Positions 1,834-58,661 of a stretch of 64,000 nucleotides of DNA are shown one piece after another. The stretch is taken from IMG/VR virus record IMGVR_UViG_3300042922_000286, positions 1 to 64,000 of that record. One strand, written 5' to 3'. Made by a program: the position numbers and the translations under genes. The notes below the pieces were generated by a model, which was given only the letters and a program-made list of their open reading frames with translations, searched no databases and had not been told where the DNA came from. Origin of the DNA: a virus (Duplodnaviria > Heunggongvirae > Uroviricota > Caudoviricetes). Numbering within the stretch: the first letter of the stretch is position 1; each line of letters begins with the position of its first letter.

Positions 1834-2685
1834 TTACTCTGCCTCCTTAGCTATCAAGTCCATATCCTTCAGCAACGTCGCCACTTTCTTGACGATGCGG
1901 CTAACTCGCATTTGAGAGATGCTCTCTTTGTTAGCTGTCTGAGTTTGGCTGAAACCGTCGATTCGATGGCGCAGAACGGATACTTCCTTGTCCGTTAGCT
2001 TATCACGTATGCTATCAATAATCGAATCTACTAGCACCTTGTCTACAACATCAGCTTCAAGCTCTGCTCCATCAACTATTAAATCTAGCGATGTTATAGG
2101 AACTGTAGATGCGCCTAAGTTATTCCGAGGCGAACTGACTGGTTCGTCTAAATACTTTACAGTCTTGCCGATCTGTAAAGCCTTCTTGACCCGTTCTTCT
2201 TGCTCGTCAAGCATGATGGATATGTCGTCAATAGAAGGCAGGTAACCAAGTTCGGCCTCCAAGCGACCTATACGATTTATAAGTTCATTAGCTGTGCGTG
2301 TAGGGCGAATAATATTTGCGCTGTCCCGTAGGTAGCACTTGATCTCTCGCACAATGGCTGTGACCGCGAACGACGAAAACTTTGTGCCGTAGTTCAGGTC
2401 GAACGCCATGATAGCCTTGAAGAATCCAAGCCTACCTAGTTGGAGAATATCGTCCTTGTCGACGCGATAGTTCGAGGACAGAGTTTCAGGCTTACCTACG
2501 TACTTATGTACGGAGTGCCAGATCAAATCCTCATTAGCGACCATTACCTCCCCAAGATAGCTTGAGTCCCCTTTGCACCTTAGGATATTATCCATATCGT
2601 ACAGTGAGTAGTACTTCTTATTATCTTGTAGGTTCTCTTGGATGAACGCAGGGTACTTACTCATGTATCCCATCCTTCCATACAA
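1834..2685 (-). CDS. Phage-encoded sigma-70 family sigma factor, similar to sporulation sigma factors SigF/SigG/SigB.
   Basis: Region 2 motifs (DLIWHSVHKYV, GRLGFFKAIMAFD, FSSFAVTAIVREI), region 3 and a region 4 HTH (ISQMRVSRIVKKV). Confidence 0.75.
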   Translation of the reverse strand: MYGRMGYMSKYPAFIQENLQDNKKYYSLYDMDNILRCKGDSSYLGEVMVANEDLIWHSVHKYVGKPETLSSNYRVDKDDILQLGRLGFFKAIMAFDLNYGTKFSSFAVTAIVREIKCYLRDSANIIRPTRTANELINRIGRLEAELGYLPSIDDISIMLDEQEERVKKALQIGKTVKYLDEPVSSPRNNLGASTVPITSLDLIVDGAELEADVVDKVLVDSIIDSIRDKLTDKEVSVLRHRIDGFSQTQTANKESISQMRVSRIVKKVATLLKDMDLIAKEAE

Positions 2686-5719: not shown

Positions 5720-5750
5720 TTATTCCTCATCCTCTCATGTGCGTTTTCCT

Positions 5751-5793
5751 CTTACAATGAACCTATACGGCAGGTACTACCGTTAGTTTAGGG
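5751..5793 (-). promoter_or_regulatory. Conserved bipartite promoter-like element, copy 1 (transcribed strand: CCCTAAACT-N15-CGTATAGGTTCATTGTAAG).
   Basis: Core on plus at 5751-5769 and box AGTTTAG at 5785-5791, with an exact 15-nt spacer. The spacer contains GGTAGTACC. Confidence 0.5.
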
Positions 5794-5799
5794 CTGTAA

Positions 5800-6881: not shown

Positions 6882-8990
6882 TTATACCGCGCAAGCTACG
6901 CATTCTGTGCTTTCCTCACCGACCGGTGCCTTAACGTCCTTTTTCTTCACTCGGGTGTAGTATAGCGATCTTAAGCCCTTTTGAGCGGCGTAGATATAAT
7001 AACTAGCCAACTTCGCGGTAGAGATGTCCTGCTGCACGAATAGAACCGTGCTGATGCCTTGATCGATATGCTCTTGAATGACCGCCACCATATCAATGAC
7101 CTTCTTCATGTCAGTGTTGTATGCCGACTTGAAGAACCACTGATTATCCGCGCAAAGATGTGGGGCAGGGTAGAAGGTCTTACTGTTCGCGTACGTACGA
7201 GTCTCAATTAGATCGACCAGCGGAAGTACGGAACTAGTCGCGTTCTGAACATAGCTGATGGATTGAGTGGGGGCGATAGCAAGGCGATAAGCATGGTACA
7301 GACCGTACTGCATAACATCGTAGGACAGAGCTTTCCAGTCGGCAGGGGTAGGGATGTAAATTCCCTCGAACAGCGCCTTTACCTTATCCGACTTAGGGTA
7401 GTAGTTATTTACAAGATACTTCTGGAAGTACGAACCGTCCGCATAGTCCGACTGATTGAAGTCCTTGAATGTTTCTTTCATGGTTATTGCGAGCTGCATG
7501 GACCGCTCAATTGAGTAATAATTCATCATCATGAAGAATGTACGGGCAAAGTCGAGGGCTTCGAACGACTCATACATAATTTTGTTCTTGGCAAGGTAGC
7601 CATGCAAATCCATAGCACCTAAGCCAATGGAGTGCAGTTCTTCATTTGCCTTTCTCACGCCCGGGGCATTGTTGATGCTTGTTTCAGCGGATACTACAGT
7701 CAGAGCATCCACACCTTCATGTACCGATTCCCGAATCTTTTTAGATTCCATGACATTCGTGATATTAAGGGAGCCGAGGTTACATGAGATATCCCGTTTG
7801 ATGATATCCTCGACGGTGTAGTCGTTAATAACCGATACCTCTTGAAGCTGCATTATCTCGGTGCAGAGGTTAGACATAAGCACCCGCCCGATACGATTCA
7901 ACGCATGCTTCTTGTTAGCGTTCGTGATGTTGAAGATGTACGGATAGCCCGACTGCATCTGAGTCTGTGCGATCTTGTTTAAGAAGTCGCGGGCGTTCAT
8001 GATAAGCTCCTTACGGATGCGAGGGTCATTAAGCAACGCATCATACATCGTATCGAAGTCAATGTCGGTCATTCTCAGGCCGTAGTGTTTTTGAATATCG
8101 TACGGGCTGAAACCGTAGAAGTCTTGATCAGCCTCGGCTATTTCGTAGAACTTCTGTGGAACTGTAAGGCCGATAGACAGTTGCTTCAAACGAATGTTAT
8201 CGTCAGCGTTGACCTTCTTCGTATCAAGCAGCCGCCCTGCGTCAATGTGGAAGATGGTCACGTAGGACGCCCCTGCGCCCTTACGCTGGCCTCCCTGATC
8301 GTAGTAGCTGAACTTCTGCTCCATCTGCTTGGCAACGCCTACGATGCCCTTAGCAGCGTTTTCCAGCCCCTTAATAGGGTCGGATAGAGCACGGAGGTTG
8401 GATAGATCGCAAGCCACCCCGCCACCGATACGGCTCAGTTGCGCCATACATGCGAGGTTATATTCGATGGAATTTGTAGTGTCGTCCATAGTCAGTAGGA
8501 AACATGAAACCATTTCTCCACGGCGAGAGCGTCCCGCGTTGAGGTAGGTAGGGGTTGCTGGTTGGTATCGCTGCTCCATCAAGGACCGAACCAGTCTCTC
8601 TGCCTTCTTCAGCCTACCTTTGCCCAAGTGAAGCGCGACAATGGCATTGTGTTCAGCAAAGCTTTCAAGGTAGGTTTTCTTATCGTTCGATTTCAGGCCG
8701 TAGTCCGTATAGAACTTGTAGGCTTGCATGAAGGACTTGAACTTGAAGTCGTAGCTATATGCGATAAGATGGATATATTCAACCTGATCTTCGGTGTATT
8801 TCTGGTGCACGTCCTCGTAGAAGTCATTCTCAACCATCCACTTGATACGCTCAGTGATATTGTTGAATTTCATTGAGCGACTTTCTACTTCCTTCATAAA
8901 CTCCACTACGGCCTCACGGTCTTTGTCCAGTTGGAAGAAGCCATCCTCTCCGCGTTGAGTAACCATGTTGTTAAGCTCGATATACTTCAA
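6882..8990 (-). CDS. nrdE: Ribonucleotide reductase class Ib large (alpha) subunit.
   Basis: 702 aa with the NLCTEIMQ active-site motif and C-terminal cysteines (ECVACAV). Confidence 0.85.
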   Translation of the reverse strand: MKYIELNNMVTQRGEDGFFQLDKDREAVVEFMKEVESRSMKFNNITERIKWMVENDFYEDVHQKYTEDQVEYIHLIAYSYDFKFKSFMQAYKFYTDYGLKSNDKKTYLESFAEHNAIVALHLGKGRLKKAERLVRSLMEQRYQPATPTYLNAGRSRRGEMVSCFLLTMDDTTNSIEYNLACMAQLSRIGGGVACDLSNLRALSDPIKGLENAAKGIVGVAKQMEQKFSYYDQGGQRKGAGASYVTIFHIDAGRLLDTKKVNADDNIRLKQLSIGLTVPQKFYEIAEADQDFYGFSPYDIQKHYGLRMTDIDFDTMYDALLNDPRIRKELIMNARDFLNKIAQTQMQSGYPYIFNITNANKKHALNRIGRVLMSNLCTEIMQLQEVSVINDYTVEDIIKRDISCNLGSLNITNVMESKKIRESVHEGVDALTVVSAETSINNAPGVRKANEELHSIGLGAMDLHGYLAKNKIMYESFEALDFARTFFMMMNYYSIERSMQLAITMKETFKDFNQSDYADGSYFQKYLVNNYYPKSDKVKALFEGIYIPTPADWKALSYDVMQYGLYHAYRLAIAPTQSISYVQNATSSVLPLVDLIETRTYANSKTFYPAPHLCADNQWFFKSAYNTDMKKVIDMVAVIQEHIDQGISTVLFVQQDISTAKLASYYIYAAQKGLRSLYYTRVKKKDVKAPVGEESTECVACAV

Positions 8991-9381: not shown

Positions 9382-9742
9382 TATCCGCTTTCAGCTTCCG
9401 TAATTCGATCAGTTCCTCGACAAGGGAGTAGAAATCTCTGTCCTCAAGGACGAAGTAGTCCTTGGTGTCCCCGAACGAAAAAGCGAGGGCGGGCATCTTA
9501 TCAGTTCCGAAGGTTTCTTCCTTGATTTTGTCGAGCCATTCCTTCTGAACCGTAATTGATTTCTGCCCTGCCTTCGCTCTAGTTTTAGCCTCTATGCGAA
9601 ACAGCTTTGATACAACATCGCTCTTGGCGAACCATAAAGCTCCCGACGCCATCTGCCGCCGCGCTTCGTCTCCGAGCTGCTTTAAGTTCTTAGTTATTCT
9701 CCCTTCTTGTCTCTTTGAAACTAGCTGATTTCGTGTTGTCAT
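9371..9742 (-). CDS. Hypothetical protein.
   Basis: Internal ATG at 9742 has a strong RBS AGGGAGGG; the ORF track extends to 9778. Confidence 0.35.
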   Translation of the reverse strand: MTTRNQLVSKRQEGRITKNLKQLGDEARRQMASGALWFAKSDVVSKLFRIEAKTRAKAGQKSITVQKEWLDKIKEETFGTDKMPALAFSFGDTKDYFVLEDRDFYSLVEELIELRKLKADSEQ

Positions 9743-9950
9743 TCGGAACCCTCCCTGCTGTGACACGTTCTGACACACTGATGATGATACCCTCTGCGAT
9801 GGTGTCCCCGTGCTTTTCTATCACCTGTTCAGCTACCTTTCGGTCGAAGCGCAAGTGCAGCCACTCTACTAAGAACATGAAACCGTACTTGAAGAGGGCG
9901 GCGAGTGCCAAGCTGACACTCGCGCAGATCGCTACTGTGTACCAAGTCAT
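9690..9950 (-). CDS. Hypothetical small membrane protein.
   Basis: N-terminal TM helix. It starts 2 nt after the recA stop and overlaps the next ORF by about 53 nt, so it is uncertain. Confidence 0.3.
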   Translation of the reverse strand: MTWYTVAICASVSLALAALFKYGFMFLVEWLHLRFDRKVAEQVIEKHGDTIAEGIIISVSERVTAGRVPNDNTKSASFKETRRENN

Positions 9951-9951
9951 A

Positions 9952-11061
9952 TTAAGCAGCGCCCCTTAGAAGTTGATTAACCTGTTCGTACATCTTCGGT
10001 ACGATATACCCGCCCGCTTGGAAGTCTGCCGCGAGAGCTTCCTTCGTCTTAGGTACACCGTTCCATTTGTATTCTTCTTTTGTCTCAGGGTTAGTAAGCG
10101 CCTCACCCGTCGATGGGTCAATCCACTTCAACCAACCTGCGCCTGTTAGGATGTTCAACTCTTTGGCTACGTGAACCAATTCATTGATAGAGTCAAGCCC
10201 TGTCTCGTAGTACATATCGATAACAGCCACTTTATGGGGAGCCGCCACCTTGTTCTTCGAGATCTTACACTTGATCTGATTACCATGAACGACCTTCGCG
10301 TTACCAGAACCGGTAGAGAAGTAATCACCCTTCGAAACTTCAATGTTGATGGTTGCGGCATGTTTGAGCGATCTACCGCCCGATGTAGTCGTAGGCGTAC
10401 CGTACATCGAGAATCCACCGATCTTGTCGCGAAGCTGATTGATGAAGACGAGCGTAGTTCCCGACTTCGTAAGCAGCCCACTGTTGACGAGCTTACGCAT
10501 AGCCTTCGAGTTGATCTTCGAAGCCCCGCCTACGCGACTCTCCTTGTCCCAATCCTCTTGTTCAAACTCGTCCTTAGGAATCAGCCCGTCAACGGAGTCC
10601 AGCCCGATGATGCTATACTTGCCGCTCTGCAACATAAACTCGATCATCTTGTAAATGTTCTCAGCGTAAGTGTCAGGCTGCGTAATCATCAGGCGCTTCA
10701 AGTCCACCCCGAGCTTCTGCGCCCATATAGGGTCGTAGGAATGTTCGAGATCGATGATGGCGCACATCTTGTCAGGTTCTAACGCCTGAGCCTGTGCTAT
10801 CGCAAGATTCAGGATCGTCGTCTTACCTGAGGATTCTGCGCCATGCAGCCCGATAAGCCGACCGTGGGGAAGCCCTCCACCAAGAGCGATATCAAGCATC
10901 AAGGAGCCTGATGGACGCATCTTGATATTAGCCAACCGTTCCTCTTTACCTAGAATGAACATTGACTGCGGCCCGAACTCCTTACGAATCTCGGCTAGGA
11001 GCTTATCCTGCTCTGTATAGAAGTCGGTAATGTTCGTCTTTTCTTCATTTGCTACCGCCAT
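9952..11061 (-). CDS. recA: RecA-family recombinase.
   Basis: SGSLMLDIALGGGLPHGRLIGLHGAESSGKTT, FINQLRDKIG and the remainder align by eye with RecA over its full length. Confidence 0.8.
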   Translation of the reverse strand: MAVANEEKTNITDFYTEQDKLLAEIRKEFGPQSMFILGKEERLANIKMRPSGSLMLDIALGGGLPHGRLIGLHGAESSGKTTILNLAIAQAQALEPDKMCAIIDLEHSYDPIWAQKLGVDLKRLMITQPDTYAENIYKMIEFMLQSGKYSIIGLDSVDGLIPKDEFEQEDWDKESRVGGASKINSKAMRKLVNSGLLTKSGTTLVFINQLRDKIGGFSMYGTPTTTSGGRSLKHAATINIEVSKGDYFSTGSGNAKVVHGNQIKCKISKNKVAAPHKVAVIDMYYETGLDSINELVHVAKELNILTGAGWLKWIDPSTGEALTNPETKEEYKWNGVPKTKEALAADFQAGGYIVPKMYEQVNQLLRGAA

Positions 11062-11966: not shown

Positions 11967-12234
11967 TGTTATTCCCCCTGATTGGTAGTTTTAGATTGGC
12001 GTTGCACTTCTCACATCGACCGTATATAACTATTGGGTCGATACCGCATGTGCGGCATTTCATTACCCCGCCCCTGATGCTCCCGGGTTCCACTACAGCA
12101 GTGAATTCCACGTCTTTGACAGGTATACGCTTTTCCTCGCCTGTCTTTAGGTCTGTCAGAATCATGGTGGCGTTTTTAGCCACGAATTTCTTAGGCAATG
12201 TCATGAGTTTCTCGCTATAGCTGCGTTCGCCCAC
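11959..12234 (-). CDS. Hypothetical zinc-ribbon protein.
   Basis: CRTCG...CEKC cysteine pairs. Confidence 0.35.
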   Translation of the reverse strand: MGERSYSEKLMTLPKKFVAKNATMILTDLKTGEEKRIPVKDVEFTAVVEPGSIRGGVMKCRTCGIDPIVIYGRCEKCNANLKLPIRGNNNV

Positions 12235-12325
12235 ATTACCGCCTGTTCGAGGTTTGTCATGGCTAACGACTTCTCTCGGCTGTCAGGGCAGTTGTTGTCG
12301 ATAACATCGTACGGATTAGGCTTGC

Positions 12326-12868
12326 TCATGCTTGTAACCCCCTGTTTATACCGCGGCGAGTGTCCTCAAGATCACTGCCACGTCGAGATATTTCGCGGCT
12401 GATAGCGTAAGCGCGTTGTTCGTAGCCTTCACGGAGCGCCCGGGTCGCTGTGTACATCGACAGCGCCTCCGTATATTTCAATTCCCATTCGAGATAGAGA
12501 GGCTCACAGTATACTGAGGCGTCCCTAATCTCCCGGTTGCCTTCCTGAACAGTGTAGAGTTGCTTCTTCACCACGTCCCGCACCTCTTCGGCGGTGGAAC
12601 GGTCGATGTCAGCAATTGCCTCGCACCATCTTGCGTAGGACACCATTCCTGTCCAACGGTCAAGGAACTCACCAAGCTCGTTGTATGGAATGTTAGCAAT
12701 GCCGCCGTAGCGCCGCCGCACGTTGTCCCACTCTTGGAACAAGTCCGTTCCGGTTACTGCATCCTCAGGCTTGGGAGGTACAGGCAACCCTGCTCGTTGG
12801 ATTTTGTCCATCGTGGCCCTACGACTGACGAATAGCTTGACGCCTTCGACAATCTCATATCGCTGCAT
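12326..12868 (-). CDS. Hypothetical protein.
   Basis: ORF with coding-like composition. Confidence 0.35.
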   Translation of the reverse strand: MQRYEIVEGVKLFVSRRATMDKIQRAGLPVPPKPEDAVTGTDLFQEWDNVRRRYGGIANIPYNELGEFLDRWTGMVSYARWCEAIADIDRSTAEEVRDVVKKQLYTVQEGNREIRDASVYCEPLYLEWELKYTEALSMYTATRALREGYEQRAYAISREISRRGSDLEDTRRGINRGLQA

Positions 12869-14155: not shown

Positions 14156-14183
14156 TTTTGATTCACTCCGTTTCGTGTGTTGT

Positions 14184-14227
14184 TTGCTTACACTGAACCT
14201 ATACGCCACGACCTCGGCTCAGTTTAT
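14184..14227 (-). promoter_or_regulatory. Conserved bipartite promoter-like element, copy 2 (ATAAACT-N15-CGTATAGGTTCAGTGTAAGCAA).
   Basis: Core at 14184-14205 and box AGTTTAT at 14221-14227 with a 15-nt spacer. Confidence 0.5.
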
Positions 14228-14232
14228 ATGCC

Positions 14233-16064: not shown

Positions 16065-16353
16065 CCCACCGCGGGAACTCCACTCCCTCGATGGATTCTA
16101 CACAACCACCCTCAGGAGTAGGTTCAGCCAACACACGAAGGTCCGCATAGGCAGGTTCGCACCCTTCTCGCAAAGCAGGGAGGGACGAATCCTTGCTAAT
16201 AACGATTACCTTGCGGGAACGGTGGATGTAATCCTCGCTTAGATACACCTGTACGTCCTTGTCCTCCAGCTTCAACGCCTCTGCAATGATGCGATTCAGG
16301 ATGTTGGTAGGGATTACAACTTGAAATCCGTATCTTTGTTCTCTAGTGTCCAT
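16048..16353 (-). CDS. Hypothetical protein.
   Basis: ORF in operon context. Confidence 0.3.
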   Translation of the reverse strand: MDTREQRYGFQVVIPTNILNRIIAEALKLEDKDVQVYLSEDYIHRSRKVIVISKDSSLPALREGCEPAYADLRVLAEPTPEGGCVESIEGVEFPRWGDLRD

Positions 16354-19754: not shown

Positions 19755-19780
19755 TGGTCATTACCTCGCTTTGATTTAAT

Positions 19781-19824
19781 TTGCTTACACTGAACCTATA
19801 CGCGACCAGATCAGACCAGTTAAG
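19781..19824 (-). promoter_or_regulatory. Conserved bipartite promoter-like element, copy 3 (CTTAACT-N15-CGTATAGGTTCAGTGTAAGCAA).
   Basis: Core at 19781-19802 and box AGTTAAG at 19818-19824 with a 15-nt spacer. Confidence 0.5.
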
Positions 19825-19830
19825 GTTTGG

Positions 19831-21704: not shown

Positions 21705-21750
21705 GTTCTCATTTCCCCTTTGCGAGTGTGTTAGTTGTACAGGCGTTATC

Positions 21751-21795
21751 GCCTTACACTGAACCTATACGACAAGGGTAGGGGTGAGTTTAGGG
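21751..21795 (-). promoter_or_regulatory. Conserved bipartite promoter-like element, copy 4 (CCCTAAACT-N15-CGTATAGGTTCAGTGTAAGGC).
   Basis: Core at 21751-21771 and box AGTTTAG at 21787-21793 with a 15-nt spacer. Confidence 0.5.
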
Positions 21796-21819
21796 CGTCT
21801 GTGGAAGCTTTCAGGCAAA

Positions 21820-21852
21820 ATAAAAAACCCCCTGATTCAGCATCAGGGGGAG
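21820..21852 (-). terminator. Terminator after gene 21858..22055 (hairpin CCCCCTGAT-loop-ATCAGGGGG).
   Basis: 9-bp stem at 21828-21836 and 21842-21850, with AAAATAAAAAA on plus giving the U-run on the minus transcript. Confidence 0.6.
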
Positions 21853-21857
21853 TTGAT

Positions 21858-22055
21858 TTATAGCTGTATGTTTATCTTATTATTGCATGACCTACACCTT
21901 ATAGTTAGTACTCCGCTGTAGTCCGAGTAGGTTACGTCAAACCCCTCGATTTCATGAATAGGGAACGTAATAAGTCCCTTAGTTGTAGAGAGAGCGCTTT
22001 CGCCCACAGCCTCAACGATACCTATACTGTTGCATGAACAAATCAACCTCACCAT
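21858..22055 (-). CDS. Hypothetical small protein.
   Basis: ORF between the sigma gene and the terminator. Confidence 0.3.
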   Translation of the reverse strand: MVRLICSCNSIGIVEAVGESALSTTKGLITFPIHEIEGFDVTYSDYSGVLTIRCRSCNNKINIQL

Positions 22056-22068
22056 GAGAGTGTTCGCC

Positions 22069-22632
22069 TCACATCTGGTTATATTTGGACTTGATCTTCG
22101 ACCATATCTGTGACATTCGGGACTTAGTTACACCAATCACCTTGGCGATCTCGACAAACTCGTAACCTTCCACATATAACTGGAAGATTTGCTTCTCCCG
22201 GTCTGTCAGCCCCATATTGTTCATGACATCCATCATGACTTCGGCGTTCTGATAACCGTAGTCAATAGAGCCGACTTGAAGCGTAGATCGCTCGTCACTA
22301 CCGAGCTCACTTGGGTCATAATTAACTACGATCTCGTCAGCATTTACTACCATGAGATTCTTGCCACTTCCGCACTTGCGCAGGCAGTCACGGATCATAT
22401 TCTCGATAACGTGGTCAACGTAAGTGCTCATTCTACTCGTCTCGCTATTGTAGAGATCAAGCGATCGATATACCTTGAAGACAGTTTCTTGTACAACGTC
22501 CTCAGTGTCCATTCCTGCGAAGCGCTTAGAGCCGATCTTCGCCGCAGTGTGTTTTTGCACTTTTTCTAGGAACAGGTCCATGTCGCCCGTAGCGAACAGT
22601 TCGTCATAGGTCATTGTCGTATTCATTGTCAA
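22069..22632 (-). CDS. Small phage-encoded sigma factor (ECF-like/group 4 sigma-70 family).
   Basis: Region 2 (DVVQETVFKVYRSLDLYN...YVDHVIENMIRDCLRK) and a region 4 HTH (REKQIFQLYVEGYEFVEIAKVIGVTKSRMSQIW). Confidence 0.65.
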   Translation of the reverse strand: MTMNTTMTYDELFATGDMDLFLEKVQKHTAAKIGSKRFAGMDTEDVVQETVFKVYRSLDLYNSETSRMSTYVDHVIENMIRDCLRKCGSGKNLMVVNADEIVVNYDPSELGSDERSTLQVGSIDYGYQNAEVMMDVMNNMGLTDREKQIFQLYVEGYEFVEIAKVIGVTKSRMSQIWSKIKSKYNQM

Positions 22633-22657
22633 GGTTTCCTCCCCAATATTCGCAGCA

Positions 22658-23752
22658 TCACTTGCTTAGTTTAGGTCTTTTCAGTTCTTCTATAACACTA
22701 TTAGGAACCTGACTCCTAAAGGTTAAGAATGGTACGACCTTGATCTTCTTCATCATTTTGAATTTCAGAAGATCATTGGCATCTTTATAGGGGAGTTCCT
22801 CTGTATCTACGGTGTCGATGCCCCAATGTCCACCCGGGTACATAACCACATTCACCTTGATCGGCGTCTTGGATAAAAGTTCGTACGTCTTGAGCGTACA
22901 ATCAACCCCCGCCTTGTCGTTATCGAAGAAGAGGTTGACGGTTTTAATCCCGGCCAGTAGGAACTCTCGAAGCTGTTCTTCGAAGAGAATCCGTCCAAGA
23001 ATAGCTACGGCGGGCAACCCTGACTCGTAACAAGACATCGTATCGGTTTCCGACTCGTTCACGAATACTTCGGTTATCTTATATGGGCTTTGTGAGAGGT
23101 AGTACAGCCCATACAGGATATCCTTCTTGTATATGTTCTTCTCGTTGAGGAAGGATTTCGTCAAGACGTTCCTTCTCTTGATGAAGCGAACCAGCCCTTT
23201 ACTCGTTCTGACCGGGAACGTAATGGAATTGGATTGCTCATCGTACCCGATCTCGTATTTACGTAAGGTGCGATCACTGAATCCGCGACTGGTAATATAT
23301 GAATGCTTCTTGCTTGTGTACTTTGTCACCTCGGATTCAGGTAAAGACCGTTTCCTGTCCAGCTTGTTCCCCCCATCAATGATACTACGTATGTCCAACT
23401 TTTTTCTGTCTTTTACGGACAGCACGATGTAGTGTTTTTGAATGTAGTGTAGACCGTGAATCTCTGACGGTAGCTCCATGACGTGAGCGATTAGCTTGCC
23501 GAGACTTCCTGACTCACCGCACCCAAAACAGTTGAACGTATACGGGTACTGTGTGAGGATACCGAAGGACGGCGATTCCTCTTCGTGGTACGGACAGCAG
23601 CACATTATGTTCTCACCTTTGTTTGATGTCTTGTCAAAGGCGCTAACATTATACAGCACTTGTTTGCCCGATCTCCACGACAACATTAAGTCGTCAAGCA
23701 TCTCTTCTACGTCAATATGTACCGCCGAAAGTATATCCGACAATTCCCACAC
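22658..23752 (-). CDS. DNA primase (DnaG-like: CHC2 zinc finger plus TOPRIM).
   Basis: CCPYHEEESPSF...CFGCGESGS zinc-binding domain; TOPRIM EV..ESETDTMSC...FFDNDKAG. The start is uncertain (GTG at 23752 or TTG at 23743). Confidence 0.8.
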   Translation of the reverse strand: MWELSDILSAVHIDVEEMLDDLMLSWRSGKQVLYNVSAFDKTSNKGENIMCCCPYHEEESPSFGILTQYPYTFNCFGCGESGSLGKLIAHVMELPSEIHGLHYIQKHYIVLSVKDRKKLDIRSIIDGGNKLDRKRSLPESEVTKYTSKKHSYITSRGFSDRTLRKYEIGYDEQSNSITFPVRTSKGLVRFIKRRNVLTKSFLNEKNIYKKDILYGLYYLSQSPYKITEVFVNESETDTMSCYESGLPAVAILGRILFEEQLREFLLAGIKTVNLFFDNDKAGVDCTLKTYELLSKTPIKVNVVMYPGGHWGIDTVDTEELPYKDANDLLKFKMMKKIKVVPFLTFRSQVPNSVIEELKRPKLSK

Positions 23753-23800: not shown

Positions 23801-23829
23801 TTGACAAATATAGCACCCTGTTCATAATC
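23801..23829 (+). promoter_or_regulatory. Consensus sigma-A-type promoter on the plus strand (TTGACA-N17-CATAAT), facing the minus-strand promoter and antisense to upstream genes.
   Basis: TTGACA at 23801-23806, a 17-nt spacer and CATAAT at 23824-23829. The two TTGACA boxes form an inverted repeat, TTGACA..N24..TGTCAA. Confidence 0.5.
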
Positions 23830-23836
23830 CTGTCAA
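23807..23836 (-). promoter_or_regulatory. Sigma-A-type promoter on the minus strand (TTGACA-N18-TATATT) driving the primase-sigma operon; candidate early promoter.
   Basis: On the minus strand TTGACA is at 23836-23831 and TATATT at 23812-23807. Confidence 0.55.
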
Positions 23837-23908
23837 TAAATTATTTCGACACAAAGTAATGCCAAATACCTATGCTGTGTCGAATGATACTAACTAGACT
23901 ATTAATAA

Positions 23909-23953
23909 CCCCTACACTAACCATATACGATAGGTACTACCATAAGTTTAGGG
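23909..23953 (-). promoter_or_regulatory. Conserved bipartite promoter-like element, copy 5 (CCCTAAACT-N15-CGTATATGGTTAGTGTAGGGG).
   Basis: Core at 23909-23929 and box AGTTTAG at 23945-23951 with a 15-nt spacer. The spacer contains GGTAGTACC. Confidence 0.45.
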
Positions 23954-23969
23954 CAGGGGTTAAATTATT

Positions 23970-25016
23970 TTAGTTATGTTTCAACTTATTGTACTCCTGA
24001 ATGATAGCGTATTCCTCAGCCGTAACTGTGCGCACCTTGTTGATATGTTCCCACTTACATGTGTCAGTAAACTGATAGCGGAAGTGTTCACCGAATATAG
24101 GGATGTTCGCTTCGATCTGATTGGCAAGTTGCTCCATACCTGCGCGAAGCTCAGGGTTGGCTTTGGTCAACTTTGATCTGCGGAAGTACACATATCGCAA
24201 CTCATGTAAGTCGATCTTCCACAGCGCCGCGCCCGGGTGACCTAAATTAACGAGTCCGCGGAATACATCCTTACGTAATCCGTTCTTCTCACTCATGTCA
24301 GCGTACTTCTCAAGAACATAACCAAACGGAGTGTACTTGAACTTGTCATCCCCTACGAAAATAGCATCAGGGAATCCCCATTCCTCAGGGGAAGCTGTAC
24401 GGACACCGCCCGCCCAATCAACGTACTCCAATGAGCCTTTCTGTAGCATCTTATTAAAGCCATCGAATGTGATGATCTTTCCCTCATACCATTCAGATAC
24501 CTCAGGCTCACTGATCTCGGCAAGGCGGGTTGAGAAGCGAGTGATACGGTTATTGAAGCGTTGTGCGTGAGCATCAAGATCATCTTGCGCCCCACGATGC
24601 AGGCCATCTGTGAAGAAGCTGATGTCGATATACTTCATTAATGTGTGGTGATCGAACTCGACCATAGCATTGTTCTTCGTCATCCCGAGCAGTCGCTTGA
24701 ACTCTGCAATATCCTCGTTATAAATACCTTTGATCTTCGGATGGCTGTTAGTCACACCAGCGAAAATACCAAGGGCAGCAAGCTTATTGCGGTACTCTCC
24801 ATTTTGCGCTAGGAACCCGTTCTTGTCGGTGCAAACATACACAAGGTCTTGAATATGCTGTGCCTTCTCCCAAGAATAATACTTGGACTGTGACATCCGT
24901 AGGCTCATGATTGCTTCTTCATACCCACTTACTTTATATAGATGAAATTGCATTGCTGAGTTCCCCCTTGTTCTGTTCGTGTTTTGATTATAATATGCGA
25001 ACATCTGTTCGTGCAA
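23970..25016 (-). CDS. Hypothetical 348-aa protein with no recognisable catalytic motif.
   Basis: Long ORF. A thymidylate-synthase (ThyX) relationship was considered but the RHR..S motif is absent. Confidence 0.4.
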   Translation of the reverse strand: MHEQMFAYYNQNTNRTRGNSAMQFHLYKVSGYEEAIMSLRMSQSKYYSWEKAQHIQDLVYVCTDKNGFLAQNGEYRNKLAALGIFAGVTNSHPKIKGIYNEDIAEFKRLLGMTKNNAMVEFDHHTLMKYIDISFFTDGLHRGAQDDLDAHAQRFNNRITRFSTRLAEISEPEVSEWYEGKIITFDGFNKMLQKGSLEYVDWAGGVRTASPEEWGFPDAIFVGDDKFKYTPFGYVLEKYADMSEKNGLRKDVFRGLVNLGHPGAALWKIDLHELRYVYFRRSKLTKANPELRAGMEQLANQIEANIPIFGEHFRYQFTDTCKWEHINKVRTVTAEEYAIIQEYNKLKHN

Positions 25017-29886: not shown

Positions 29887-29911
29887 TTATCAAGCTCCCT
29901 TCTGTGCCCCT

Positions 29912-29955
29912 TTGCTTACACTTGCCCTATACGACCTCCGCGAACATTAGTTAAG
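29912..29955 (-). promoter_or_regulatory. Conserved bipartite promoter-like element, copy 6 (CTTAACT-N15-CGTATAGGGCAAGTGTAAGCAA).
   Basis: Core at 29912-29933 and box AGTTAAG at 29949-29955 with a 15-nt spacer. It lies 25 nt upstream of the initiator gene. Confidence 0.5.
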
Positions 29956-29976
29956 TTCGTTTATTTACATTTTCAT

Positions 29977-30040: not shown

Positions 30041-30880
30041 GTGAGCCATATTAAACTGTTCATTGATCATTTGAAGATCGAACGTGAGCTGTCGAACGAA
30101 ACCACATACAACTATGAGAAGGATATCGAGCAGTTCACAGCGTTCGTATGCAAACCTGTTGAGCAGGTAACCACTGATGACATTGTGCGGTTTCTCGCTC
30201 ATCTAAAGGACAAAAGCATGAAGGCATCCACCCGAAACCGTAAGCTATCTGCCCTAAAGACTTTCTTTAAGTACCTTGCAAGGCGAGGGCGTGTTCCATT
30301 CAGCCCCGCCGCGGACATCGAGGGGGCCAAGCAAGACAAGCACCTTCCGAAGCCAATCAATGCTGAAGTGCTCGACCAGTTATTTGAAGCCGTAAATAAC
30401 CTACGCGACAGAACCTTATTGGAAATACTGTACGGCTGCGGGCTGCGTCGTATGGAGTTGGTCAAGATAAGAATATCGGATATTGACTTTACCCAAGGAT
30501 TCATTCGCGTACTAGGGAAGGGTGGCACCGAACGGATCGTCCCTATCCGAGGCATCGCCTTGCAGATTACTAAAGAACTCGCGGCGAAGGCGAGTGGGGA
30601 ATGGTTGTTCGAGGGCGGCAATGGACATCTGTCCGCACGGCAAGCAAACGATATTATAGCTAAATGGAGGGGAGTGGTAGGGGCCAAGTGGATTACTCCG
30701 CACAAGTTTCGCCACTCCTTCGCTACGCACCTGTTGAATAATGGGATGGAGCTAAAGTATGTACAAGAGCTTCTCGGCCACGCCAATCCAGCCACTACAC
30801 AAATCTATACGAAGGTTGACAACAGACGTGTAGCTAACGATTACGAACAGTTTCATCCAAGAGCAAAAAGCGCCCTCTAG
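30041..30880 (+). CDS. xerD: XerC/XerD-family tyrosine recombinase.
   Basis: SAM-like N-terminal domain and a catalytic domain with R...(GLRRMEL)...HSFATHLL...GHANPATTQIYTKV (R-K-H-R-H-Y). GTG start with RBS GGGAGGA. Confidence 0.85.
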   Translation: MSHIKLFIDHLKIERELSNETTYNYEKDIEQFTAFVCKPVEQVTTDDIVRFLAHLKDKSMKASTRNRKLSALKTFFKYLARRGRVPFSPAADIEGAKQDKHLPKPINAEVLDQLFEAVNNLRDRTLLEILYGCGLRRMELVKIRISDIDFTQGFIRVLGKGGTERIVPIRGIALQITKELAAKASGEWLFEGGNGHLSARQANDIIAKWRGVVGAKWITPHKFRHSFATHLLNNGMELKYVQELLGHANPATTQIYTKVDNRRVANDYEQFHPRAKSAL

Positions 30881-42986: not shown

Positions 42987-43796
42987 CTAACCGGTGCAGT
43001 TGACCGTTATTTCAATAGTAACCGCCCGCACACCGTCCCCCAAAACAGGAACATTCACACGGAATAGATCACCCATAGATACCTCGGATACACCTATGAC
43101 GTAGGGTATGGAGGATGTTCTGCTTGATTTTGTGTCTGCATCGATTACTATAGGTTGAGACAACACGGGCTGCCACGTCCCGTCATTATCGTAATCGTCC
43201 TGCCCTATCTTCTCGATCTGTAGGGTGAGGTCAGTAGTAGGGGCTACCTTACACGACGCATATACCTCAGCGATAACACCACTAAAGGGGAATCGAATCT
43301 CTACGTCCTGAACACCGAGCTTGACAGCTCCGGGAACCACAATAACGATAACCCTACGGTTGAGGCGTTCATCCATACTGTCCAGCCTACTGTCAAGCTT
43401 AGGGAAGCTGTTCCGAGCTTCCCTAATCTCTTGCTCAATCGAGTTAATACGATCACGGTCGGCTTCGAGTCCCTGCACCGTTTTGGTTCTCCACATACGT
43501 ATGAATATCTCGTCACCAATGTTGAGAGGTGACGGATTACCGTCAAGGTCACGCACATCTAGGATAATAGTGTTGGGTGACGGCTCTTCATAGCCGCCGC
43601 CCGCTGTCAAGTGCTGGCCGTTGAAGTATACATCCAGTTCGCCTCTACCCATTACATAATCCTCGGGCAGCGTAATGATAATAGGAACCGTGTACTGAGC
43701 AACATTGCTCGCGTCGATAACTAACTCGTAGTCGGTTTTATCGAGCAAATTCTGTTTGCCGTACTTGTTCAGTGTCATCTTTGTCCCTGCTGACAT
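42987..43796 (-). CDS. Hypothetical structural protein.
   Basis: ORF in the late operon. Confidence 0.4.
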   Translation of the reverse strand: MSAGTKMTLNKYGKQNLLDKTDYELVIDASNVAQYTVPIIITLPEDYVMGRGELDVYFNGQHLTAGGGYEEPSPNTIILDVRDLDGNPSPLNIGDEIFIRMWRTKTVQGLEADRDRINSIEQEIREARNSFPKLDSRLDSMDERLNRRVIVIVVPGAVKLGVQDVEIRFPFSGVIAEVYASCKVAPTTDLTLQIEKIGQDDYDNDGTWQPVLSQPIVIDADTKSSRTSSIPYVIGVSEVSMGDLFRVNVPVLGDGVRAVTIEITVNCTG

Positions 43797-58618: not shown

Positions 58619-58661
58619 CTCTCCCCTAGTATAGACAATAGAAAAGAGTAGACCTTGCGAT

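Follow-up and report, generated by a model that had tools for sequence, protein, structure and literature searches.

The 64,000-nucleotide stretch of tailed-phage DNA analysed here (positions 1 to 64,000 of IMG/VR record IMGVR_UViG_3300042922_000286; the window hereafter) carries, on the minus strand at 22069–22632, a gene for a small sigma factor resembling those of the extracytoplasmic function (ECF) group, which we call sigma1. Judged by its sequence, sigma1 is a real sigma-70 protein of ECF-like (group-4) type with regions 2 and 4 only, and we consider it fairly probable, from the arrangement of genes and promoter-like sequences around it, that it serves as the first activator of the lytic/replicative programme of a large, probably temperate phage. 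Six bipartite elements of ECF promoter type jointly head the whole replication and nucleotide module of this phage, and one of them lies upstream of the operon of sigma1 itself.

Sigma1 is an ECF-like sigma factor

Depending on the start codon, sigma1 comprises 187 residues (TTG), 185 residues (ATG at 22626, the start called in an independent assembly of the same phage) or 181 residues (JGI); a ribosome-binding site, GGGGAGG, is found 5–11 nt 5' of the TTG and ATG codons. Pfam Sigma70_r2 (PF04542) matches residues 40–86 with 29.8 bits against a cut-off of 24, and Sigma70_r4 (PF04545) matches residues 141–178 with 27.0 bits against a cut-off of 24.1. The Pfam search at E < 1 gave no match to region 3 or region 1.1, so that the description in the first-pass annotation of a sigma-70 protein with regions 2 and 4 alone is upheld. 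NCBIfam TIGR02937 (sigma70-ECF) scores 66.7 bits against a cut-off of 42.9, and PHROG 1740, 'RNA polymerase sigma factor', matches at 1.2e-15. None of the specific NCBIfam sigma models reached its threshold (SigW, 22.4 against 209; RpoE-type, about 34 against more than 280), and in this comparison region 4.2 is closer in appearance to that of FliA/SigD. The top sequence match in the PDB is 3mzy, a 'sigma-H' chain, at 4e-9.

Some 38 representative clusters make up the sigma1 family at E < 1e-30, beyond which the matches pass into the general ECF/sigma-70 background. Sigma1 is the most divergent protein within the conserved replication cluster. Across 11 homologues, the region 2 segment DVVQE-x3-K-x7-Y is invariant, and the region 4.2 helix (V/C)(T/S)K(S/A)R.SQIW is conserved among the homologues. 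An AlphaFold2 model built from the 11 homologues (pLDDT 77.5) has two helical domains, between which residues 97–126 form a linker some 30 residues long that is disordered, of low confidence and devoid of a helical domain. Among the PDB matches listed by Foldseek, all are sigma factors or sigma-containing complexes; they include Bacillus subtilis SigH and, in holoenzyme structures, the ECF factors SigH and SigL of Mycobacterium tuberculosis and SigE of Escherichia coli. Sigma1 is predicted to bind core RNA polymerase (RNAP) and to confer promoter-specific initiation, the modelled fold fitting the sigma chains of holoenzymes. Comparison with both ECF sigma factors and gp28 of phage SPO1 had been proposed: profile and structure matching places sigma1 in the ECF superfamily (TIGR02937 and Foldseek) but does not connect it with gp28 (hhalign probability 5%).

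Six candidate promoters head the replication and nucleotide genes

Six copies of the sequence CC-T(A/T)AACT-N15-(T)CGTATAGGTTCAGTGTAAG occur in the window, at 29928, 23924, 21766, 19797, 14200 and 5764, and every one is on the coding strand. The core pattern TWAACT-N15-CGTATAG is matched five times, where 0.01 matches are expected, and the looser form [AT]AAC-N16-CGTAT occurs six times on the coding strand and not at all on the opposite one. When nine sources, among them one that overlaps the window, are taken together, nearly all matches to the looser pattern are on the coding strand and a single match is on the opposite strand; most matches stand some 20–70 nt 5' of a start codon. Each of the six elements is intergenic or at the end of a gene, and three directly follow a terminator-like hairpin; the distance from these six to the next start codon is mostly about 45–70 nt. 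A further conserved block, GGTTCAGTGTAAG, is found 3' of the −10.

Following the minus strand, the first element (29909–29958) precedes an operon encoding a replication initiator, a DnaC-like loader, an HNH protein and DnaB. The second (23905–23954, motif 23924–23950, CCCTAAACT-N15-TCGTATATGGTTAGTGTAGG) lies upstream of the operon containing sigma1, and the third (21747–21796) stands ahead of a gene for an SSB-like protein, directly 3' of the terminator of that operon. The remaining three head the operon that includes DNA polymerase A (19778–19827), the genes for RuvC, RecA, NrdI, NrdE and NrdF (14181–14230), and those for dUTPase, thymidylate kinase, SLT, HU and a second sigma factor, sigma2 (5745–5794). 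The claim that six conserved bipartite elements precede replication and nucleotide-metabolism genes is thus borne out. A seventh candidate just 5' of sigma1 (22647–22673) was rejected, since its CTAAACT lies inside the 3' coding end of the primase gene and its −10 is not conserved; CTAAAC is also present at the 3' coding end of the primase gene in the related loci L004 and L002. A shared ACGGTCTA..ACTAGGTAC motif at 41.6 kb and 3.1 kb was likewise considered and is not supported.

In published ECF promoters, AAC is conserved at −35 and the −10 is of CGT type, CGTA being the sigW-selective form (PMC5758882). The sequences of the six elements support the assignment of this architecture to them (AAC at −35, CGTA at −10). 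On the grounds of architecture, co-occurrence and the logic of a cascade, we infer that sigma1 reads the AAC/CGTATA elements. The pairing is argued for by the fact that the ECF character is found in protein and promoter alike, and by the positions of the two sigma genes, because sigma1, not sigma2, is placed behind promoters of the sigA/LexA type and sigma2 is itself downstream of an AAC/CGTATA element. The element at 23905–23954 suggests an autoregulatory promoter, and positive feedback on sigma1 is likely because this element is upstream of its own operon, the customary place for the promoter of an autoregulated ECF sigma.

Predicted transcription of the sigma1 operon

Sigma1 follows, after a gap of 25 nt, a gene for a DnaG-type primase (22658–23752, minus strand), in which the Pfam Zn_ribbon_DnaG and Toprim_2 models, corresponding to a CHC2 zinc finger and a Toprim domain, exceed their cut-offs and which matches PHROG 47 at 4e-40. 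It is followed by orf65 (21858–22055, minus strand), a Cys-rich open reading frame (ORF) of 65 codons, without a match in Pfam or PHROG, that would be co-transcribed with it. Comparison with the relative L003 reveals three nucleotide differences in orf65, and because all three are synonymous it looks like a real gene. The unit is closed by an intrinsic terminator at 21828–21850 (minus strand), with a 9-bp stem containing six G-C pairs and a T-run, TTTTTTATTT. Sigma1 is therefore directly downstream of the primase gene in an operon shut by a terminator, as had been described.

A sigA-like promoter, TTGACA-N18-TATATT with an upstream TG, is located at 23807–23836 (minus strand), about 55 nt 5' of the primase start; it matches the consensus at 11 of 12 positions and is the best such match between 15 and 31 kb of the window. 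The sequence supports co-transcription of sigma1 with the primase gene from a sigA-type promoter to the terminator. This promoter had been taken for the only sigma-A-like promoter of the operon. Its existence is confirmed, but it is not the only one: a second is found at 25016–24987 and no strong terminator lies between the two. The second promoter (24987–25016, minus strand; TTGCAC-N18-TATAAT) has in its spacer a perfect Gram-positive LexA, or Cheo, box (consensus, PMC2248561), CGAACAGATGTTCG at 24998–25011, which is the sole 10/10 match to CGAAC-N4-GTTCG in the 64 kb. It is situated 30 nt ahead of a gene for a ThyX-like thymidylate synthase (23970–24953, minus strand), and no strong terminator intervenes before sigma1. 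The ThyX-like protein is very divergent, with a PHROG 24884 match at 4.5e-124 and a Pfam Thy1 score of 19.6 bits, below the cut-off; translation probably begins at ATG 24953, the start used in L095, rather than at TTG 25016.

A box of the form GAAC-N4-GTTC is found 5' of the primase or sigma gene in six of the 10 related loci (L001, L006, L007, L008, L086 and L089), and in five of these six it is the only one in the locus. By reading of the sequences, the box of each relative overlaps a sigA-like promoter, that of L007 being inside a consensus TTGACA-N17-TATAAT. From these boxes, expression of the sigma1 operon is probably gated by the SOS response. Since the relatives are prophages and a LexA-box promoter precedes the operon, the 'early' signal is probably SOS derepression and not simply the timing of infection. 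A LexA site within the promoter at 23836 was also considered and discarded, as by eye it holds a GAAC half-site only and no sequence there comes within one mismatch of the box consensus.

Two further features of this upstream region may be recorded. On the opposite strand a second sigA-like promoter, TTGACA-16-CATAAT at 23801–23828, overlaps the minus-strand promoter, and the two TTGACA hexamers within 23801–23836 form an inverted repeat some 30 bp apart; the overlapping pair could function as an antisense promoter or as an operator. A perfect 9-bp inverted repeat at 23845–23884 (minus strand), TTCGACACA ... TGTGTCGAA, separates the ECF-like element from the sigA-like promoter. Folding of a 96-nt RNA segment that includes it yields −20.5 kcal/mol (z = −2.2); a stretch rich in A and U comes next, and the hairpin may be an attenuator or operator.

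Related loci

The relatives of the sigma1 locus were found in contigs of bacterial genome assemblies or in IMG/VR viral contigs of 108–204 kb. L001, L002 and L004 are metagenomic contigs, L086 and L087 are IMG/VR contigs, and L006, L007 and L008 are prophages of Paenibacillus, Anaerovirgula and Brevibacillus sp. SYP-B805, respectively; Jenst is a cultured Brevibacillus phage. Paenibacillus sp. NPDC058071 is, like Brevibacillus sp. SYP-B805, a lysogen of such a relative. The order primase–sigma–SSB–PolA is kept in seven lineages (L001, L002, L004, L086, L087, L007 and Jenst), and L006 retains primase–sigma–PolA with no SSB gene detected. The AAC/CGTATA motif accompanies the sigma gene in L001, L002, L004, L086, L087 and L089, and all seven copies in L086 are on the coding strand. 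Allowing for variation between lineages, the elements are present in every relative with a sigma of this family.

The motif changes in the loci in which the sigma factor is most divergent. In L007, whose sigma is 36% identical, the −35 is retained as CTTAACTTTT and the −10 becomes (C/T)GGTA(A/T). In L008, the −10 is retained and the −35 becomes TTGGAT, and there is an S-to-Q change in the otherwise conserved region 4.2 helix. These shifts are suggestive of a link between motif and sigma, each being a single case. L008 has an intact sigma gene, LexA box and sigma2 homologue, while its primase upstream of sigma survives as two fragments (9549–9994); this prophage may be decaying yet keeping its regulatory genes.

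In L001 (ENA ERZ23491692), an arbitrium aimR–aimP pair is present at 7382–8676, directly upstream of the primase–sigma operon. The aimR product scores 150 bits with Pfam AimR, and the aimP-like ORF encodes 45 residues with, by eye, a hydrophobic, signal-peptide-like N-terminus. Characterised arbitrium systems have aimX at the position held in L001 by the primase–sigma operon.

A second sigma factor and a second promoter-like class

The gene for sigma2 (1834–2685, minus strand) encodes a SigF/G-like sigma factor of 276–283 residues with regions 2, 3 and 4. The Pfam region 2 model scores 34.3 bits, regions 3 and 4 are matched more weakly, and PHROG 351 matches at 1.8e-40; the protein matches SigF-like sigmas of Bacillus phages and a sigma of Jenst. 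Because it is placed after the gene for an HU-like protein and before genes for holin-like and glucosaminidase proteins, sigma2 is probably a late sigma, lower in the cascade. In L006 and L008, a homologue of sigma2 follows sigma1 at a distance of about 4 kb.

A different bipartite sequence, GTTAG-N18/19-TATACTA, is found in intergenic gaps of the tail module at 35918–35947, 41570–41600 and 42962–42991 (minus strand), three matches where 0.01 are expected. TATACTA is present also at 58627–58633 (minus strand). A sequence similar by eye to this class, CCCTATACTT, is located 3' of the sigma2 homologue in L006. Sigma2 and this additional promoter-like class in the tail module together suggest a cascade of two sigma factors.

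A model for sigma1 action and its alternatives

In the scheme that we favour, host RNAP with sigA would transcribe a ThyX–primase–sigma1–orf65 unit from two promoters, that at 25016–24987, with its LexA operator, being derepressed by the SOS response and that at 23836–23807 supplementing it. Sigma1 would bind host core RNAP and recognise T(A/T)AACT-N15-(T)CGTATAG promoters. The copy upstream of the primase–sigma1 unit would provide positive feedback, and the five others would switch on the operons for replication initiation and helicase, SSB, DNA polymerase, recombination and ribonucleotide reductase, and nucleotide kinase. The last of these would deliver sigma2, the probable reader of the GTTAG-N18/19-TATACTA class ahead of the structural genes. 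A bolder proposal, of which we are doubtful, is that in this family of phages, with genomes above 100 kb, sigma1 is the master lysis switch and its operon the point at which host LexA (in most members) or AimR–AimP (in L001) acts, with sigma2 completing a two-step cascade. A classical CI-type repressor would then not be needed to keep the replication module silent, because the promoters of the replication module would all be invisible to host sigA.

Several observations weigh against sigma1 as the first activator under SOS control. The LexA-box promoter has a weak −35, TTGCAC, matching at three of six positions, and a spacer of 18 nt, and it lies 1.2 kb 5' of the primase gene with the hairpin at 23884–23845 in between, which might attenuate read-through. 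A search of L002, L004 and L087 for a Cheo box found none, and no conserved anti-sigma partner of sigma1, a co-transcribed companion that is common though not universal among ECF factors, was found. Orf65 was considered for that role and ruled out as a family feature, as it has no family match and no homologue in any of the 10 other loci. Other readers of the elements are also conceivable: sigma2, from the same module, is a genuine member of the sigma-70 family and occurs together with sigma1 in L006 and L008, and the elements resemble published promoters of B. subtilis sigW in their CGTA −10, AAC −35 and 16-nt spacing (PMC5758882).

Each of these last two points has a rival explanation attached to it. 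Were sigma2 (1834–2685) the reader of the six AAC/CGTATA elements, sigma1 would have other targets, for instance the TATACTA class or host genes. When the region 4.2 helix of sigma2 was compared between the window, L006 and L008, neither candidate reader was favoured, and co-occurrence cannot set sigma2 aside because the flanks of most of the related loci are too short. Sigma factors of the SigF/G group read CATACTA-type −10 elements; sigma2, which has region 3, belongs with this group, and the TATACTA class resembles the −10 of the group, whereas CGTATA does not. Moreover, AAC/CGT is an ECF signature, it is sigma1 that sits behind the sigA/LexA-type promoters, and the cascade could not begin with a factor encoded behind an AAC/CGTATA element. 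We therefore regard this exchange of roles as improbable. We think it equally improbable that a host ECF factor of sigW type, activated by envelope stress in infection, reads the elements, sigma1 being otherwise employed or competing for core RNAP. Against it, the motif is tied to phages with this sigma and shifts along with sigma divergence, the block GGTTCAGTGTAAG after the −10 is phage-specific, and if promoters in a prophage could be used by a host sigma that is active at a basal level, replication functions would be expressed leakily. For the Jenst-like phages, no copy of the phage motif was reported in the host genome (PMC4909266).

Finally, sigma1 might be a degenerate sigma-like protein that no longer initiates transcription and instead, for example, regulates by binding DNA or acts as a decoy of core RNAP. 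Its Pfam scores exceed the cut-offs by only a few bits, it reaches no specific NCBIfam family and it is the most divergent protein of its cluster. Nevertheless, both sigma domains are retained at full length in the roughly 38 clusters at E < 1e-30, with invariant positions in regions 2.2 and 4.2. Low domain scores are usual for phage sigmas, and SigN of the B. subtilis plasmid pBS32, whose homology to known sigma factors is equally weak, is a proven sigma. Loss of function is accordingly the explanation to which we give least credence.

If sigma1 does act as first activator, the transcription layout of a large and almost uncultured group of Paenibacillus, Brevibacillus and Anaerovirgula phages would be explained by a chain leading from an SOS or peptide-signal input to an ECF-like sigma with positive feedback, then to the replication operons, and from these to a second sigma and the structural genes. 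The SigN/pBS32 circuit, so far that of a single B. subtilis plasmid, would gain a counterpart in bona fide tailed phages, and a compact, probably orthogonal sigma/promoter pair would become available for Gram-positive synthetic biology. The principle is not new, as cascades of phage sigmas, ECF-like sigmas of phages and LexA-gated sigmas of mobile elements are all known, and a similar proposal of motif and sigma has been published for Jenst-like phages. What the sequences suggest as a modest new twist is that, in true tailed phages, a sigma operon receives its input from the SOS response or from arbitrium.

Comparison with known systems

The closest characterised analogue of sigma1, by analogy of circuit, is SigN (ZpdN) of pBS32, which is expressed from a LexA-repressed SigA promoter and an autoregulated promoter (Burton et al. 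2019, PMC6751061). The SigN regulon consists of DNA-replication and nucleotide-metabolism genes of the plasmid and is reported to exclude its prophage-like region (PMC6751061). Like sigma1, SigN is a small ECF-like sigma encoded on a large mobile element, with a LexA operator overlapping a SigA promoter 5' of the sigma operon; here the operator, CGAACAGATGTTCG in TTGCAC-N18-TATAAT, is predicted. The layouts match in having one element at the operon of the sigma itself and others at replication and nucleotide genes, which in the window are candidate promoters. The gene contents of pBS32 and the phage overlap in ThyX, RNase H, dUTPase, Holliday-junction resolvase and an actin-like segregation protein. 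The similarity of the two proteins is marginal, however: they share 21% identity, BLASTP gives E = 0.37 and the hhalign probability is 52%. The promoter consensus of SigN, TTTACGTTT ... AGATATAA, is unlike the T(A/T)AACT ... CGTATA of the phage, and the phage also differs in carrying a full tail module and a second sigma.

In the Jenst-like phages, a repeated motif ahead of replication genes has been noted, and one of the phage sigma factors, with that adjacent to the primase gene among the candidates, was proposed as its reader with reference to SPO1; the same authors found no evidence of Jenst being temperate (Berg et al. 2016, PMC4909266). The 'sigma-24' of Jenst/SecTim467 (YP_009199201.1) is a distant homologue of sigma1 (hhalign 95.6%, identity about 27–29%). 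The gene order of Jenst is the same as that of the window (DnaC-like loader, helicase, primase, small sigma, SSB-like gene and PolA), and its genome, of about 126 kb, encodes further sigma factors, as does that of the window phage. The exact motif of the window is absent from the Jenst locus, in which related-looking TCGACCATA sequences are discernible by eye only.

Phage SPO1 gp28 is a phage sigma, made from host-recognised promoters, that redirects host RNAP to the next temporal class of genes, and a further sigma function serves the late genes. The likeness of sigma1 to this middle-gene sigma of a virulent Bacillus phage, put forward in the first-pass annotation, holds for the general logic, as an analogy only. 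It does not extend to homology: the hhalign probability is 5.4%, confined to a 27-residue stretch of region 2 and not specific, and the SPO1 record is absent among the matches listed in a tblastn search with sigma1 at E ≤ 10. SPO1 is, moreover, strictly lytic, whereas the setting of the window phage is probably temperate, with a predicted LexA operator and predicted autoregulation.

Bacterial group 4 factors such as B. subtilis sigW share with sigma1 the restriction to the sigma-2 and sigma-4 domains. The sigW promoters share with the elements of the window an AAC −35 and a CGTA −10, 16 nt apart, and a copy upstream of the operon of the sigma itself. Unlike the bacterial ECF factors, sigma1 is phage-borne, is encoded beside replication genes with no recognisable anti-sigma gene, and reaches no specific ECF family model. 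An ECF-type sigma is also encoded by phiEco32 and the kuraviruses; as cited in PMC7881722, it has been shown to bind host RNAP and is regarded as an outlier ECF subgroup without an anti-sigma. Its carriers resemble the window phage in encoding such a factor and differ from it as virulent podoviruses of Gram-negative hosts, and the phiEco32 sigma gave no match to sigma1 among the matches listed in the phage collection at E ≤ 10. We know of no LexA gating in phiEco32.

Setting of the window

All long ORFs of the window are on the minus strand, with the sole exception of a XerD-like tyrosine recombinase gene (30041–30880). Reading along the minus strand, a tail module from 64 kb to 30.9 kb, with a tape measure, virion proteins and fibre-like proteins, is followed by the recombinase, by a 30-kb replication, recombination and nucleotide module and by sigma2. 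The 30-kb module begins with genes for an initiator-like protein, a DnaC-like loader, HNH, DnaB, the ThyX-like protein, primase, sigma1 and the SSB-like protein. It continues with those for a Band-7 protein, PolA, RNase H, a Cas4-like nuclease, RuvC, RecA and NrdIEF and ends with dUTPase, thymidylate kinase, SLT and HU; the holin-like and glucosaminidase genes come after sigma2.

A 102-kb contig of a different assembly agrees with the window at 100% identity, an identical Logan contig adds 6 kb past the window, and the self-match in the protein database is on a 124.7-kb JGI contig. Among deposited phages no close relative was found, a megablast search with 21–25 kb and a tblastn search with sigma1 both being empty at 1e-5, and the best PolA match is 33% identical. 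The host is probably Paenibacillus/Brevibacillus-like, a soil bacterium that forms spores, and the phage probably temperate and large, of about 100–125 kb.

A gene for an actin-like segregation protein (ALP_N and MreB-like_C) is located at 16252–17328 of L096, some 1.8–2.8 kb past the low end of the window and on the opposite strand; pBS32 likewise has an actin-like filament gene, adjoining sigN. This protein hints at a plasmid-prophage lifestyle, in which the XerD-like recombinase (30041–30880) would possibly serve in dimer resolution. A 42-codon ORF at 12201–12329 (minus strand) matches the Pfam Acb2/Tad1 hairpin domain with 58 bits and may represent either a piece of an anti-CBASS/Thoeris nucleotide sponge or a minimal version of one.

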